A stretch of DNA of 7,795 bases, from the IMG/VR virus record IMGVR_UViG_3300012275_000021, one strand, 5' to 3'. A program made the translations under genes and the position numbers. Under the pieces are notes generated by a model that was not told where the DNA came from, ran no database searches, and saw nothing but the letters and a program-made list of their open reading frames with translations. Below, piece by piece: positions 1 to 6,837 of this stretch. The number at the start of each line of letters is the position of its first letter. Position 1 is the stretch's first letter. This DNA comes from a virus. Its lineage: Duplodnaviria; Heunggongvirae; Uroviricota; Caudoviricetes.

Positions 1-1013
1 CGCTGGTTATTCGTACCGCTTACCGGGAGCAACCAGGGGTTTTCAAAATTCCGGTCCGGTCCAAAAAACGTCGTCGCTCGCTGAACAAATTCCGTTCCCG
101 CTTTCCCGGTAGCCGCCAGATATCTTGCGTAACGCCTCACGCCATCCAGCATGGCCTCTGGTGGCACCCCCTCGCGTAATCTGGCCTTCCAGGCACTGAA
201 AGCGGATTTCTTCGGGTTTGCCCCAGCACGCAACGGGTACTCCCGCCAGACCTGTTCGAACACATCCGGATAATCCACTCGTCCCACAGACTGCCCGGTG
301 TTTTCCGGAACTACCCGATCGGCTTCCCGCTGAATGGCGGAATCGGCTTCAGGCTGCTGCAGTTGGTGTGATTGCTCCGGCCTTGCGGTCATCACCTGCT
401 GCACAGCGCCCGAATCGGCTTTCAGCGCATACGCTGAATCGGCTTCCGGTGTCGTGCCTGCTGGCTGACCAGGATTGACGGCCTGAACATCCCCTGCCTG
501 GTTCGTGGCGTTTTTTACGCCATGGACCATAGTATTTTGATCTTCTTGATCTGTATCTTTATCTGTATCTTTATCTGTCGTGACTCGTCGTGACATGTGC
601 GTGACATTTCGTGACGCGCCGTGACAATCGCCATTTTGTTCCCGCTTTCTTTCCCTCTCTCGCTGCGCCCTCTTGCGCTCTGCAGGAGATTTTGCGGTTT
701 GCGATATATTGCCGTTGTCCTCTTTAAGCACTTGGCGTTTTTCCCATCCAGTGATTAAATCACCATCAAGTACCCGCCCCTGCATCGTCTGCAAAATTGA
801 ATCAATTACCTCTTCTGTTACGTCGAGCGCACTTGCCAAATCTTCTGTCGTGACATCAATGTGACCTCGCGTGACATTTCGTGACGCGCTCACCAGGAGG
901 TGGATATACACTGCCATCACTGTTGCAATTGGCTGCCCTGACACCCTGGCAATTGTTCGCCACTTAGGGTCATTTGGCATGTCATGCCATAATCTGAGCC
1001 AGGCGTTAGCCAT
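1..1013 (-). CDS. Lambda O-like replication initiation protein, 3'-truncated by window edge (start at 1013, runs off position 1); origin-like iterons embedded in the coding sequence
   Basis: Hand translation of the minus strand from ATG 1013-1011 gives an uninterrupted frame to the window edge (MANAWLRLWHDMPNDPKWRTIARVSGQPIATVMAVYIHLLVSASRNVT...YPDVFEQVWREYPLRAGANPKKSAFSAWKARL...). A GAGGTG Shine-Dalgarno lies 3 nt upstream of the ATG. The gene sits downstream of the cro-like and CII-like genes, as O does in lambda, and carries intragenic iterons plus an AT-rich repeat. The track missed it because the ORF has no in-window stop. The functional name is inferred from position and architecture, not from a recognised motif. 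Confidence 0.6.
   Translation of the reverse strand, partial: MANAWLRLWHDMPNDPKWRTIARVSGQPIATVMAVYIHLLVSASRNVTRGHIDVTTEDLASALDVTEEVIDSILQTMQGRVLDGDLITGWEKRQVLKEDNGNISQTAKSPAERKRAQRERERKREQNGDCHGASRNVTHMSRRVTTDKDTDKDTDQEDQNTMVHGVKNATNQAGDVQAVNPGQPAGTTPEADSAYALKADSGAVQQVMTARPEQSHQLQQPEADSAIQREADRVVPENTGQSVGRVDYPDVFEQVWREYPLRAGANPKKSAFSAWKARLREGVPPEAMLDGVRRYARYLAATGKAGTEFVQRATTFFGPDRNFENPWLLPVSGTNNQ
549..578. repeat. Tandem 12-mer ATCTGTATCTTT x2.5, AT-rich, immediately flanking iteron cluster A (candidate DNA unwinding element)
   Basis: Direct reading: atctgtatcttt at 549-560 and 561-572, then atctgt at 573-578. On the minus strand it encodes a DKDTDKDTD peptide repeat in the O-like protein. 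Confidence 0.6.
579..628. repeat. Iteron cluster A: five CGTGAC cores phased at 10-11 bp (candidate replication origin iterons)
   Basis: GTGAC at 580, 590, 601, 611 and 621. The 20-mer cgtgacatttcgtgacgcgc at 600-619 is an exact copy of 870-889. Confidence 0.65.
849..890. repeat. Iteron cluster B: four (C/T)GTGAC cores phased at 10-11 bp, second copy of the 20-bp element
   Basis: GTGAC at 850, 861, 871 and 881; exact 20-bp match to 600-619. Lies in the N-terminal domain coding region of the O-like gene. Confidence 0.6.
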
Positions 1014-1084
1014 ACTCACCTCTTCTGATACCGAATCTTTTTACTCACGAGTTGCCGGAAGCGATTCGATATGGCTATTGTCAG

Positions 1085-1510
1085 TCAATGTACTGCCACA
1101 GCATTTCCTGCCGGGCCACCACGGTTCATCTGATTGAAACCGGCGATTGCCACTGCGACAAAATCATCAGCGTCTCTCACCAATCGCTCCCGCGTCTCCA
1201 CCAGCTCCCGAAAATAAGCTGAACTGTGGCTGCGCATTCTGGCCACCAGCAAAGGTGGCATTGCCTTTTCGATCGCTGGTAACAACGCCTGAATTTTTTC
1301 AACTGCATCAGGGGTGTCTTTCTCTACCCAGCGGAAAATTTTCTGGGTATTGCGAGCCAAGGCTTCCGGATGGCTGTCGTCATACAGTTCAGGAAACGTC
1401 ATACCCAACTCAAAATAAGCCTGGGTTATTCCAGCTGCTGGAACTTTTTCGCCATCAGGACGCGCCCAGGCATTCATCGCCATGCGGATGTGTTCATGCT
1501 TGATTTTCAT
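1085..1510 (-). CDS. ydaT: YdaT-like protein (CII-position regulator of Rac-type prophages)
   Basis: 141-aa ORF beginning MKIKHEHI, which I recall as the YdaT N-terminus. GGAGG Shine-Dalgarno 5 nt upstream. Start codon overlaps the stop of the upstream cro-like gene as ATGA (1510-1507). Position is immediately downstream of the cro-like gene. Confidence 0.7.
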   Translation of the reverse strand: MKIKHEHIRMAMNAWARPDGEKVPAAGITQAYFELGMTFPELYDDSHPEALARNTQKIFRWVEKDTPDAVEKIQALLPAIEKAMPPLLVARMRSHSSAYFRELVETRERLVRDADDFVAVAIAGFNQMNRGGPAGNAVAVH

Positions 1511-2916: not shown

Positions 2917-3045
2917 ATGGATTTCGACACAATCATGGAAAAGACTTACGAAGAATACTTCGAAGGCCTTGCCGAAGGCGAAGAAGCTCTCAGCTTCAGT
3001 GAGTTTAAACAGGCGCTTTCCAGCTCGGCAAAATCTAACGGCTGA
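2917..3045 (+). CDS. ydfB: YdfB/YdaG-family small protein (42 aa)
   Basis: MDFDTIMEKTYEEYFEGLAEGEEALSFSEFKQALSSSAKSNG. ATG lies 1 nt after the ydfA stop (taatATG), with AGGTGAG upstream. Not in the ORF track, presumably under its length cutoff. Confidence 0.65.
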   Translation: MDFDTIMEKTYEEYFEGLAEGEEALSFSEFKQALSSSAKSNG

Positions 3046-3074
3046 TAAGCGAAGCAGCACCGCGAGGAATCAGT

Positions 3075-3293
3075 ATGCAGAAACGAGAACCCGTCATCAT
3101 CGCGCCAGACTATACCGATGATGAACTTTATGAGTGGATGCGCCAGAAAATTAATGCAGCGCAGGATCTGAAATGGGCCAATGAAGCCAGGGCTAAGCAG
3201 GCTGAAAATCTGTCCGCTCTGGAGCAGGATATCACCAATCTGGAAAAAGCAGCGGCATTAAGCATTGCCAGAATGATTACATACCCGCGTTAA
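3075..3293 (+). CDS. ydfC: YdfC-like small protein (72 aa)
   Basis: Track ORF with a GAGGA Shine-Dalgarno. Sequence MQKREPVIIAPDYTDDELYEWMRQKINAAQDLKWANEARAKQAENLSALEQDITNLEKAAALSIARMITYPR matches my memory of Qin YdfC. Order ydfA-ydfB-ydfC-dicF-dicB matches the dicB operon. Confidence 0.7.
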   Translation: MQKREPVIIAPDYTDDELYEWMRQKINAAQDLKWANEARAKQAENLSALEQDITNLEKAAALSIARMITYPR

Positions 3294-3633: not shown

Positions 3634-3691
3634 TTTCTGGTGACGTTTGGCGGTATCAGTTTTACTCCGTGACTGCTCTGCCGCCCTTTTT
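3634..3691 (+). ncRNA. dicF: DicF small regulatory RNA (antisense inhibitor of ftsZ translation) with 3' intrinsic-terminator-like stem and U tract
   Basis: tttctggtgacgtttggcggtatcagttttactccgtgactgctctgccgccctttt matches the DicF sequence as I remember it. GGCGG (3649-3653) pairs with CCGCC (3681-3685) and is followed by TTTTT (3687-3691). Sits between ydfC and dicB as in Qin. Exact 5' end is processing-defined and approximate here. Confidence 0.8.
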
Positions 3692-4330: not shown

Positions 4331-6837
4331 ATGAGCACTGATAAAGAAGAATTTGCACTATATTGCGAAGCAAAAAATGACAAAGTAAGAAAACGCCTAG
4401 GAATTAAAGGTGGTTTTTACTGGACTACAGCAAAAAAATTATCTGTTGCAATCTCCCGCTGCATTACCGCAATGGATGACAACGATTATGATGAAGACGA
4501 CTTTAAAAAACCCGTCCGCGTCAATTTGCCCGTTGTTGACGACCTTCCGCCAGAAGGCGTGTTTGATACTGAATTCTGCAACCGCTATGAAAAAGGCGGG
4601 AAAGATGGCATCACAATGACATTTATCGGCCCTTCCCCCTCTGTTCAGGACAAACCAGCCAGCACTGACAATACCAACATCAACGGCGAAGACATGACTA
4701 AGATTGAGGAGAGCATGCTTCTGCCTGTCTCCGGTCAGGAACTGCCCATTCGTTGGCTTGCTCAACACGGCAGCGAAAAACCAGTAACGCACGTTTCACG
4801 CGACGAACTCCAGGCATTACACATTGCACGGGCTGAAGAACTACCGGCTGTTACTGCCCTGGCTATTTCGCATAAAACCAGTCTGCTCGACTCGCTGGAG
4901 ATTCGCGACCTCCACAAACTGGTTCGTGACACTGACAAAGTTTTCCCTAATCCTGGTAATTCAGACCTGGGACTAATAACTGCTTTTTTCGAAGCATACC
5001 TGGACGCTGACTACACTGATCGGGGTCTGCTGACAAAAGAGTGGATGAAAGGAAATCGTGTTTCACGCATCACCCGCACGGCTTCCGGTGCTAATGCTGG
5101 CGGTGGGAACAAAACCGATCGCAATCCGAATTTAGTACACACCCTCGACACACTGGATGTGGAGATTGCAGCAGCCACACTTCCGATGGATTTTAATATT
5201 TATGAAATTCCGGGCAGCGTTTATCGTCGCGCAAAAGAAGTAGTCCTGAACAAAGAAAGTCCGTTCAAAGAATGGTCCGCAGCACTTCGTGCAACCCCGG
5301 GTATTCTGGACTATTCCCGCGCCGCTATTTTTGCACTTATCCGAAGCGCACACCCTGAATTTTATCACTACCCGGGACGCCTTCAGGGGTATATCAACGC
5401 CTATTTGACGGAAACTGATCACGAGAACCCCAGCAAGGAAACTCTCACAGCTGCCCGGCATACGCCGGAAAAAGATATCCTGGAAAAAATTAACCGCGAG
5501 GTGGTTACTGAGCGTGAAACAGAAGAAGAAAAACCACAACCATCTGACGCAATGGCAGGTGAACAGGCAACAACTGAAACAATGGAACCGGATACAACTG
5601 AACATGGCCAGAACGCGCAGTCGCTGGATGCTCAGTCGCAGGTGAGTTCCGCTAACCAAGTAAAAGTCACCGCTGACGAAGTAAACAAAATTATGCAGGC
5701 AGCCAATATCAGCCAGCCTGACGCCGATAAGTTACTTGCTGTATCGCGTGGTGAATTTGTTGAGGGGATTAGCGACCCTAATGATCCGAAATGGGTCAAG
5801 GGGATCCAGACTCGCGATTCTGTGAACCAGAACCAGCATGAATCGGAACGGAACGACCAAAAAGCGGAACAAAACAGCCCAAATGCGTTACAAAACGAGC
5901 CAGAAACGAAACAATCCGAACCAGTAGCGCAACAGGAACCGGAAAAAGTCTGCACCGCCTGCGGTCAGAGCGGTGGCGGCAACTGCCCTGATTGTGGCGC
6001 GGTGATGGGCGACGCAACATACCAGGAAACATTCGATGAAGAGAATCAGGTTGAAGTTCAGGAAAATGATCCGGAGGAAATGGAAGGCGCTGAACATCCA
6101 CACAAGGAGAACCCTGGCGGCAATCAGCATCACGCCAGCGATAATAAAACTGGCGAGGCGACAGATCCCTTAATTAAGGTGAATGGTCATCATAAGCTCA
6201 CATCCACCAGCAGAGCGGGGATTCATCTGATGATCGACCTTGAAACCATGGGAAAAAATCCCGATGCCCCGATTATCTCAATAGGCGCAATATTTTTCGA
6301 TCCACAAACCGGAGATATGGGACCGGAATTTAGCAAGACCATCGATCTGGATACTGCTGGCGGAGTCATTGATCGTGACGTCATTAAATGGTGGCTGAAG
6401 CAATCACGTGAAGCGCAGTCTGCCATTATGACCGATGAAATCCCGTTAGATGATGCACTACTGCAATTGCGGGAATTTATCGACGAAAACTCCGGTGAAT
6501 TTTTTGTTCAGGTCTGGGGTAATGGGGCCAACTTCGACAACGTGATTTTACGCCGTTCATACGAACGACAGGGTATCCCCTGCCCATGGCGCTACTGNNN
6601 NNNNNNNNNNNNNNNNNNNNNNNNNNNNNNNNNNNNNNNNNNNNNNNNNNNNNNNNNNNNNNNNNNNNNNNNNNNNNACGCACAATCGTTGAGCTGGGGA
6701 AAGCCATAGACTTCGATGCCAGAACTGCTATCCCATTCGAAGGTGAGCGCCATAATGCACTTGATGACGCTCGTTACCAGGCAAAATACGTTTCAGCTAT
6801 CTGGCAAAAACTGATCCCGAGTCAGGCTGATTTTTAA
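4331..6837 (+). CDS. Large multidomain exonuclease: N-terminal region of the kind annotated exodeoxyribonuclease VIII/RecE-like in prophages, acidic linker, CxxC-x7-CxxC zinc ribbon, C-terminal DEDDh (DnaQ-like) 3'-5' exonuclease domain; interrupted by an 80-N run
   Basis: Track ORF 4331..6709 reads through the Ns in frame 2, and its tail after the Ns (AQSLSWGKP) is out of frame. The true continuation is frame 1 from 6679 to the stop at 6835-6837 (RTIVELGKAIDFDARTAIPFEGERHNALDDARYQAKYVSAIWQKLIPSQADF). DEDDh motifs: exo I MIDLET (~6236-6247), exo II WGNGANFD, exo III HNALDD after the gap. Zinc ribbon CTACGQSGGGNCPDCG at about 5951-5996. Acidic low-complexity linker at roughly aa 390-620. Confidence 0.75.
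6598..6677. other. Run of 80 ambiguous bases (assembly gap or masked segment) inside the exonuclease gene
   Basis: Direct reading: 80 consecutive n. Flanking reading frames differ (frame 2 before, frame 1 after), so the true missing length is not 80 if this is one continuous gene. Confidence 0.95.

Follow-up and report, generated by a model that had tools for sequence, protein, structure and literature searches.

An origin of replication located inside a gene is a known arrangement. In the Bacillus phage SPP1, oriL lies inside gene 38 and contains iterons bound by G38P together with an unwinding element (PMC5737612, PMC6316719), and ori-lambda lies within gene O, where 4-6 iterons form a single block (PMC7466680). 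Rep of iteron plasmids also makes contact with the unwinding element in its single-stranded form (PMC4081077, PMC10602881), and for the Rac prophage an active origin, oriJ, has been reported (PMC3945230).

[quoted passage not shown] With a probability of about 0.75, these repeats, together with an unwinding element, would make up an iteron origin in two parts that lies within the gene for its own initiator. The element carrying it is most likely a Rac/Qin-like lambdoid prophage of a kind common in E. coli, with this locus as its vegetative replication origin, and the two-part form, most likely undescribed, is conserved across many bacteria. All the computational tests that were run agree with an intragenic origin under both coding and DNA-site constraint. 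Binding by the encoded initiator, unwinding of the tract and initiation of replication at this site are what we infer.

The candidate origin resembles SPP1 oriL in lying inside the initiator's gene, with direct repeats (the 'AB boxes' of SPP1) beside an AT-rich unwinding element. The likeness extends to an initiator without AAA+ domain, from which a separate helicase loader takes over (PMC5737612, PMC6316719). In SPP1 the second origin copy, oriR, is far away, whereas here the second block stands about 230 bp off in the same gene. No significant sequence relationship was found between the two systems; here the cores measure 5-6 bp with a spacing of one helical turn, and the hosts are Proteobacteria instead of Bacillus.

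Like ori-lambda, the candidate origin is situated mid-gene, between the parts encoding the N- and C-terminal domains (cluster A and the tract, in codons 130-155), with the order from iterons to AT-rich tract running along transcription and with the gene context cro - cII-like - initiator. The iterons of lambda are about 18-19 bp each, palindromic and bound by an O dimer, whereas here two blocks of 5-6-bp direct cores are present, one of them inside the region coding for the DNA-binding domain. In addition, the initiator gives no match to Phage_rep_O (PF04492), even at E<=10 with a full-length copy. The earlier note, made from the window's sequence, had proposed an intragenic origin as in lambda O; the architecture could be retained, while a lambda O-type protein and O-site-type repeats could not. 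Extra iterons add residues to the protein in both cases, 13 in Stx phages (PMC7466680) and seven here.

The iteron plasmids P1 (incC/incA), F and R6K share with this locus the phased direct repeats, a winged-helix initiator and a distant second block. Plasmid iterons are 17-22 bp long, spaced by about two helical turns and located outside the rep gene, in contrast to the intragenic 5-6-bp cores here with their spacing of one turn, and no Rep_3-type domain was among the Pfam matches of the initiator. The Rac gene ydaU is comparable in its context (ydaS - ydaT - initiator - ydaV), in the C-terminal tail ..IPPGFRG of its product, in an AT tract with 18 identical nt (AAAGATACAGATAAAGAT) and in a layout of distal plus proximal repeats. 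It differs in its N-domain, which is DUF1376, and in its core, CAGnTGTTCAA, whose copies are spaced by 33 and 12 bp. No paper on the initiator family of the window was found in the literature, and older work on oriJ plasmids may mention related repeats.

Initiator gene and its product

The initiator gene lies on the minus strand at 1..1013 and starts with the ATG at 1013. Only 337 of its roughly 356 codons are included, since its 3' end falls past the left window edge (<1). In the encoded protein, residues 1-95 form an N-terminal winged-helix domain and residues 110-130 a basic helix, followed by a disordered linker at 129-160 with pLDDT <50 in the predicted structure. By prediction the N-terminal fold is that of a winged helix and resembles the N-terminal domain of DnaD. 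The counterpart in DnaD serves mainly for oligomerisation, so the DNA reader could be the basic helix or another part of the initiator.

PHROG 3729, 'replication initiation protein', matched the window protein with E=2.8e-241, and two PHROGs named 'replisome organizer' (4880 and 5968) matched it with E=5e-6 and 2e-4; the RefSeq name is 'phage replisome organizer'. PF09681 (Phage_rep_org_N) aligned residues 5-122 to profile positions 1-118 of 121 with E=0.12, its score of 12.8 bits being under the 23.3-bit cut-off. Pfam gave no family for the window protein at E<=0.01, Pfam and NCBIfam together gave no significant family for the N-domain, and a sequence search of solved structures with the initiator returned nothing useful. 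The initiator is a winged-helix "replisome organizer"-like protein and no lambda O homologue.

Among related loci, the C-terminal domains of the initiator co-vary with the type of helicase loader, DnaC-like or P-like, and a P-like loader is present with alleles having a DnaT-like C-terminal domain. As for the downstream partner that the earlier note had assumed, the downstream gene is outside the window itself, and loci with the window's allele carry a DUF977/Ren-like gene after the initiator gene and no helicase-loader gene there.

Repeat clusters and the AT-rich tract

Cluster A, the proximal iterons, occupies 579..625 on the minus strand, where five GTCACG cores (in the sense direction) are found in codons 130-146, which encode the disordered interdomain linker. 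Read on the other strand, the exact CGTGAC copies are at 579-584, 589-594, 600-605, 610-615 and 620-625, spaced by 10, 11, 10 and 10 bp. Cluster B, the distal iterons, occupies 849..885 of the same strand in codons 44-55 and has four cores, sense GTCAC(G/A): exact CGTGAC at 849-854, 870-875 and 880-885 and the variant TGTGAC at 860-865, with spacings of 11, 10 and 10 bp. In the predicted structure, cluster B corresponds to the end of helix 3 and the loop preceding the helix-turn-helix. The nine GTGAC cores are in one orientation throughout, and the plus strand of the gene is free of GTCAC. CGTGAC occurs 11 times in the window against 3.0 expected, a number reached by none of 200 shuffles, and five GTGAC copies fall inside 50 bp, the maximum being three in 500 first-order Markov simulations.

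An exact 21-bp element is common to both clusters (599-619 = 869-889), with an offset of 270 bp or 90 codons, and this identity is peculiar to the window's allele. The peptide ASRNVT is encoded twice, at residues 43-48 and 133-138, and DKDTDKDTD is encoded at residues 147-155, as the earlier note had read. Its core numbers of five and four were also right, one of the four being the TGTGAC variant, and so was its description of a shared exact element and of a tandem 12-mer flanking cluster A. Several of its boundaries had to be shifted: cluster A begins at 579 and not 580, cluster B at 849 and not 850, the shared element is 21 bp long instead of 20 (600-619 = 870-889), and the 12-mer repeat starts at 544 instead of 549.

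A degenerate inverted core, GTTACG, was found at 817..822 on the plus strand, 33 nt downstream of the last cluster B core in the sense direction. It is GTCACG in nearly all relatives and is intact in phage Tritos and other E. coli alleles. The corresponding GTGAC at gene nucleotide ~192 is kept in most loci, and its D-V-T codons show conservation at synonymous positions, the third base being G for V in 13 of 14 and A for T in 11 of 13.

The AT-rich tract of low stability, a candidate DNA unwinding element, spans 529..578. Within it, positions 544-578 carry the 12-mer TCTTTATCTGTA in 2.9 copies (95% matches), and the sense strand, (GATAAA/GATACA)n, is what encodes DKDTDKDTD. The GC content was 0.32 at 511-570 versus 0.43-0.65 over the remaining gene. 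The lowest duplex stability of any 40-mer in the gene belongs to 529-568, at -43.0 kcal/mol (mean over the gene -57.3, sd 4.0); in the whole window this 40-mer comes second. The least stable 30-mer begins 0-60 nt past the last cluster A core in 62 of 70 genes; relatives carry a conserved CAGATAAAGATAAAGAT after that core, and among E. coli alleles the copy number of the repeat varies by +12 and -6. All these putative origin elements are placed in structurally permissive coding parts.

Directly past the tract there is an imperfect 13-bp inverted repeat at 499..529 (TGGTTCGTGGCGT / ACGCCATGGACCA, 5-nt loop), which may belong to the origin. Inverted repeats follow the tract in many relatives, with a mean best perfect stem of 6.2 versus a background of 4.8, which is weak evidence. 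Promoter and terminator functions were also considered, on account of a weak promoter-like match at 601-628, overlapping the iterons, and of the hairpin at 499-529, and neither was taken as evidence. Near-matches to the DnaA box (15 vs 16.7 expected) and GATC sites (26 vs 28.5 expected) were not enriched, so there is no case for control by DnaA or SeqA. The Rfam search returned DicF only, far from the repeat region.

Conservation among homologues and competing explanations

Comparison was made with 76 distinct homologues from beta- and gamma-proteobacteria. Of 118 intervals between cores in 20 loci, 88 measured 10 bp and 30 measured 11 bp, with no multiple of 3 among them, in line with the 10-11 bp phasing that had been proposed for both clusters. 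Cluster A keeps from three to nine cores in relatives, in which its reading frame and peptide differ. Among E. coli alleles, indels of -1 and +1 in the cluster A spacers compensate each other, and alleles with six cluster B cores have a 21-bp (7-residue) insertion in cluster B. One and the same hexamer is translated in each of the three frames, giving V-T, S-R and C/G-H.

Synonymous sites were tested with 16 genes of 42-68% GC and a median amino-acid identity of 71%. The third codon positions of the cluster B cores showed 0.04 bits versus 1.31 elsewhere (Mann-Whitney p=3e-6), and synonymous positions were invariant inside these cores only. These positions are frozen across beta- and gamma-proteobacteria, presumably because the cores are protein-binding sites. 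As read from the compared sequences, selection evidently acts on the DNA itself at the clusters. The double constraint of DNA site and coding that the earlier note had suspected is thus upheld, by the frozen third positions in cluster B and by the cores of cluster A being kept across frames.

Subfamilies change the core (GTCACG, GTAACG, CGAACGC) jointly in both clusters. A de novo search for periodic 5-mers, run on the two regions separately in the 76 distinct genes, gave the class pairs (cluster B, cluster A) of (GTCAC, GTCAC) in 45, (CGAAC-type, CGAAC-type) in 16 and (AACGC, GTAAC) in three, and no discordant pair was seen, with core switches in two or three independent lineages only. The core classes go along with changes of the initiator at residues 67 and 117 and with a deletion of nine residues in it. 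Since the iterons are physically linked to the DNA coding for the N-domain, their joint inheritance in mosaics would be expected, whether the two are functionally coupled or not.

The distance between the clusters is usually 229 nt, which corresponds to 22 turns, yet it is 18 nt longer (247 nt) in the two loci L021 and L023. Strict helical phasing between the clusters was therefore rejected, and a rigid loop geometry is not required. The repeats were invariably inside the initiator gene among the loci compared, and in the phage Tritos genome (46,360 bp) no clusters of at least three cores exist besides these two. Two other types of initiator N-domain, including that of Rac YdaU, have the same layout with their own repeat cores. 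The arrangement in two iteron blocks instead of one, as first noted in the window, is conserved among homologues and hence no accident of this window. A scan of viral contigs found only copies identical to the window and added no diversity.

Functions other than replication could be imagined for such repeats. A parC-type centromere, which in R1 also has 11-bp repeats phased in two blocks, was rejected, there being no partition genes in the Tritos annotation or among the window ORFs; for the centromere and packaging-site readings alike, partner genes are lacking and the repeats are always inside the initiator gene. It is improbable that the repeats are initiator sites with a control function only, such as autorepression, an intragenic transcriptional roadblock, or titration and handcuffing as at P1 incA, with the true origin elsewhere in the prophage. 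A control role would suit the position of cluster B close to the gene's 5' end and a long way from the AT tract, as well as the variable distance between the clusters, and the two separated blocks recall those of plasmids, where the iteron blocks of origin and control stand apart from each other. In most homologues (62/70), however, cluster A lies right beside the gene's least stable DNA, the related phage Tritos offers no other cluster in its whole genome, and the order from iterons to AT tract along transcription is that of characterised intragenic origins (PMC7466680, PMC5737612). A control role of cluster B is moreover compatible with the origin reading, not opposed to it.

Recognition of the cores by some other factor, which might be a host protein, some other phage product (YdaT/cII-like or DUF977, for example) or an RNA-binding factor reading GUCACG repeats in mRNA, is very unlikely. 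The single orientation of the cores is also what an RNA motif would lead one to expect, but an RNA motif gives no reason for a period of 10/11 nt, which matches the helical repeat of B-DNA and is awkward for coding, and the inverted core, conserved at a distance of 33 nt, speaks for a reader of duplex DNA. The same cores are kept beside neighbour genes which vary from locus to locus across many genera, while the core classes follow the initiator changes given above. The operator published for YdaT is a different inverted repeat. The slightest chance of all is left to repeats devoid of function at the DNA level, as a by-product of the duplicated ASRNVT peptide and of slippage-prone DKDTD coding. 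Such an origin of the repeats would account for the in-frame 21-bp repeat (90-codon offset) specifying one peptide twice and for copy-number changes in slippage-like steps; it is contradicted by the reading of the hexamer in all three frames, by cores which persist while the cluster A peptides differ, by the restriction of the exact 21-bp identity to the window's allele, and by the invariance of synonymous positions inside the cores only. By this synonymous-site test the peptide-repeat explanation was ruled out.

Putative initiation mechanism and significance

For a two-part origin inside the initiator gene, the following mechanism is proposed. The N-terminal region of the initiator, with its winged helix and basic helix, would bind the GTCACG cores head-to-tail, and cores one helical turn apart would place it on one face of the DNA. 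The five cores of cluster A directly adjoin the conserved AT-rich hexamer tract, asymmetric in purines and pyrimidines, which would melt to give an entry site for the helicase. The four cores of cluster B, which lie upstream in the gene at a distance of about 230 bp, would be bound by the same initiator, and cluster B could serve as an auxiliary half of the origin through cooperative loading or looping; it may also limit transcription of the initiator gene. The C-terminal domain of the initiator would recruit the DnaB helicase, through a DnaC-like loader, a P-like loader or host factors, depending on the allele. Transcription from the early rightward promoter would cross cluster B, then cluster A and then the tract, as in lambda.

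A more general proposal is put forward tentatively, being rather doubtful at present. The distal array would have to pair with the proximal one, by looping or by a continuous protein scaffold, in order to open the hexamer-periodic tract, and this design would be general to at least three unrelated families of initiator N-domains of enterobacterial prophages, Rac oriJ included. Taken further, the proposal would have the loop peptide that cluster B encodes help to read the iteron. Site and reader would then be encoded by the same nucleotides, and so they must switch specificity together.

At least 80% of positions 1-1100, covering the initiator gene and its upstream flank, was found in 1647 of 5426 complete E. 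coli genomes. The gene is also carried by inducible phages, e.g. Tritos and Evi, and its C-terminal module is present in some Stx phages; in the papers that deal with non-O/P replication regions of such phages, origins and iterons go unmentioned. A defined origin would give a target for studying or blocking the replication of these prophages and hence the amplification of toxin, and a candidate sequence is supplied for Rac oriJ. The locus would also be a clean natural example of overlapping codes, in which the gain of an iteron lengthens a protein loop. With three core classes (GTCACG, GTAACG and CGAACGC) and few class-specific residues, the family would provide a ready system for the evolution of origin specificity.

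Repeat arrays and the unstable tract

Two arrays of short repeats were identified inside the initiator gene, with cores reading CGTGAC on the plus strand and GTCACG on the sense strand. The proximal array (cluster A) held exact CGTGAC at 579, 589, 600, 610 and 620, and the distal array (cluster B) held CGTGAC at 849, 870 and 880 together with TGTGAC at 860. The five and four cores reported in the earlier note were thus recovered, starting at 579 and 849 rather than 580 and 850. All of them shared one orientation, and their spacing was 10 or 11 bp in both arrays, as claimed. CGTGAC occurred 11 times in the window against 3.0 expected, a count reached in 0/200 shuffles, and GTGAC occurred five times inside 50 bp, with a maximum of 3 among 500 Markov simulations. 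The exact element common to both clusters was also real (599-619 = 869-889, offset 270 bp), with a length of 21 bp instead of 20. An inverted core was found 33 nt from cluster B (817-822), mutated to GTTACG here and reading GTCACG on the plus strand in nearly all relatives. The complete Tritos genome (46,360 bp) contained no clusters of at least three cores besides A and B.

Beside cluster A lies an AT-rich tract (529-578), in which the proposed tandem 12-mer (TCTTTATCTGTA, 2.9 copies) was present, extending over 544-578 and not 549-578. The least stable 40-mer of the initiator gene was 529-568, 3.6 sd from the gene mean, which was also the second least stable in the whole window. Directly past the tract, at 499-529, there was an inverted repeat, imperfect and 13 bp long, around a loop of 5 nt. 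In relatives with other C-terminal domains, GC-rich palindromes stood at this place, often coding P-P-R-G (CCCCCC..GGGGG).

The initiator gene and its product

The initiator gene begins with ATG at 1013 on the minus strand, and 337 codons were visible because it continues past the left edge of the window; a full-length copy, TRITO_36 of Escherichia phage Tritos, has 356 codons. Two minus-strand genes are located upstream, one YdaT/cII-like (1085-1510) and the other P22-Cro-like (1507-1737), and an S24-type repressor gene (1829-2467) is divergent. The DicF antisense RNA was found on the plus strand at 3635-3686 (Rfam RF00039, 76.7 bits), with dicB, ydfD and exonuclease VIII genes to its right according to the annotation of the matching Tritos region. 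A recE-like ORF (4331-6709) was broken by a run of N at about 6560-6650, masked or unknown bases which were translated as X. The region belongs to a Rac/Qin-like lambdoid prophage of E. coli and forms its early part. Of 5426 complete E. coli genomes, 1647 contained at least 80% of positions 1-1100; seven temperate-phage records in the databases, Tritos and Evi among them, did so too, with 97-98.5% identity.

The comparison with lambda O drawn in the earlier note held for the architecture, an origin-like region inside an initiator gene, and failed for the protein, which is not an O homologue since the Pfam search gave no match at E<=0.01. The product belonged to PHROG 3729 'replication initiation protein' (E=2.8e-241), and in RefSeq it was named 'phage replisome organizer' or else hypothetical. 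Phage_rep_org_N of Pfam aligned end to end below threshold (E=0.12). Any relation of the family to replisome organizers is distant. The final 24 residues were weakly similar to the tail at the C-terminus of DnaT (E=0.0015).

An AlphaFold model, for which 39 homologues were used, gave a confident winged-helix domain at residues 1-95, followed by a basic helix at 110-130 and disorder at 129-160. The domain comprises helices 4-11, 16-25 and 29-45, loop 46-55, two more helices (56-63, 67-77) and a beta hairpin near 78-87. Cluster B occupies codons 44-55, which in the model cover the last part of helix 3 and the loop that precedes the helix-turn-helix. Cluster A and the AT tract encode the disordered interdomain linker. 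The repeated peptides noted earlier were confirmed, with ASRNVT at residues 43-48 and 133-138 and DKDTDKDTD at 147-155. In the model, all the DNA elements are placed where the protein can tolerate dictated or variable sequence.

Constraint on the DNA and paired core classes

Twenty-six loci (47-91% identity) were fetched from other species, the sources including Escherichia albertii, Rahnella, Serratia, Aquitalea, Bordetella, Pseudomonas, Acidovorax, Gilvimarinus and Chromobacterium, and with extra viral contigs the number of distinct N-terminal sequences compared rose to 76. The layout was kept in about 19 of these 26 loci, with four GTCAC cores at gene nt 128, 138, 148 and 159, 3-5 more beginning near nt 386-390, and (A/C)nAGATAAAGATAAAGAT directly after the proximal cores. 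Layout and phasing were conserved in this comparison, which had been proposed as a check; across 20 loci the core spacing was 10 bp 88 times and 11 bp 30 times, with no other value. Since neither is divisible by 3, the period suits the DNA helix and runs against coding convenience.

Synonymous sites were compared in 16 genes (median 71% amino-acid identity, 42-68% GC), using columns of conserved amino acid only. Third-position entropy was 0.04 bits within cluster B cores (8 codons, 7 invariant) against 1.31 bits in 53 other codons (Mann-Whitney p=3e-6), and synonymous sites inside these cores are frozen. In cluster A the reading frames differ among homologues while the cores stay, hence the encoded peptides differ; the core hexamer reads V-T, S-R or C/G-H according to frame. 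Both results agree with the suggestion that the DNA is constrained as binding site and as coding sequence. Two E. coli alleles were separated by compensating -1/+1 indels in cluster A spacers, and the allele indels were confined to repeat units, +12 and -6 in the 12-mer tract and +21 in cluster B, the last giving two extra cores and seven extra residues. In 62/70 genes the 30-mer of lowest stability began 0-60 nt past the last cluster A core. AT made up 68% of the unstable tract across genes, compared with 46% of the gene, and purines made up 70% of its sense strand.

In some subfamilies the core was replaced in both clusters at once, GTCACG giving way to GTAACG or CGAACGC. When periodic 5-mers were sought de novo, separately in the two regions of the 76 distinct genes, the search found GTCAC in both clusters of 45 genes, CGAAC-type cores in both clusters of 16, and AACGC in cluster B with GTAAC in cluster A in 3. 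No discordant pair occurred among the scored genes; 12 of the 76 were unscored, having no chain of at least three cores in at least one region or no classifiable core. The switches are few independent events. Outside the iteron-encoded peptides, only two aligned columns had disjoint residues between the GTCAC and CGAAC classes: residue 67 (window 811-813; D/E/N versus A/C/G/I/S/T), where the putative recognition helix starts, and residue 117 (window 661-663; Q/Y versus W), in the basic helix. A 9-residue deletion ahead of the basic helix also separated these classes. Coming from few lineages, these three differences give a hint of candidate specificity determinants.

Initiator modules and the origin model

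In E. coli the N-terminal part, which carries both clusters (window 556-1100), also occurred joined to another, DnaT-like C-terminal domain (PF17948), with a lambda-P-like loader gene next. The window's own C-terminal part (1-538) also occurred joined to an unrelated N-domain, with a DnaC-like ydaV gene next. The gene after the initiator falls outside the window. In loci with exactly the initiator allele of the window and in Tritos, the next gene was DUF977/Ren-like and not a helicase loader (L035:2612-3448; L001:3480-3902). The breakpoints coincided with the AT tract (window 538-556), which the modules have in common and which may be a recombination joint between them; co-inheritance of the iterons with the N-domain is expected from linkage alone.

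The unrelated N-domain (MRDYAKVSPRFW...), typical of O157-type prophages, lacked GTGAC altogether and had its own core, GAAGGGGCTTC, with 2-3 copies in its coding part and 2-3 again about 255 nt further, followed by a (GAACAG/GATCAG)n tract (L005:2514-2860; L275-L354). This two-block layout was retained at 78% protein identity. YdaU of the K-12 Rac prophage (DUF1376) had the same layout with a different core, CAGnTGTTCAA (L007:2740-3160), distal copies being at 2763 and 2848 and proximal copies (region 2974-3075) at 2974, 3007, 3040 and 3052 plus an inverted one near 3070. Next came a tract, AATAAAGATACAGATAAAGATC, that has 18 nt in common with the window, and after it a C7...C7G5 palindrome. 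Rac is reported to possess an active origin, oriJ (PMC3945230), for which the ydaU repeat region is a candidate sequence.

The data best support a model of an iteron origin within the gene of the initiator, in which we infer binding, unwinding and initiation. Initiator monomers would bind head-to-tail on cores one helical turn apart, the proximal array would adjoin the unwinding tract, and the helicase would be recruited by the C-terminal domain. By analogy with PhoB, which binds pho boxes as tandem winged helices with an 11-bp period, such binding is physically plausible. The architecture has precedents in oriL within gene 38 of SPP1 (PMC5737612, PMC6316719) and ori-lambda within O (PMC7466680). 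Cluster B may serve as an auxiliary half of the origin, as a roadblock or site of autoregulation, or in copy control; the distance between the clusters departs from strict helical phasing, since two loci (L021 and L023) have 18 nt more. The tract was conserved in sequence beyond AT content alone and was strand-asymmetric, for which sequence-specific contacts with DNA in single-stranded form, of the kind demonstrated for plasmid Rep proteins (PMC4081077), or R-loop help during transcription through the origin might speculatively account.

An origin within an initiator gene is a well known kind of element. The literature on replisome organizers, iterons, ydaU and oriJ, its subscription titles covered in part, yielded no account of the origin of this family, and two publications on non-O/P replication regions of Stx phages made no mention of iterons or origins. 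For this proposed iteron origin, what appears to be new is the conserved two-block layout with one block in the DNA coding for the DNA-binding domain, the very short cores spaced by one helical turn, and the core classes switching jointly in both blocks.
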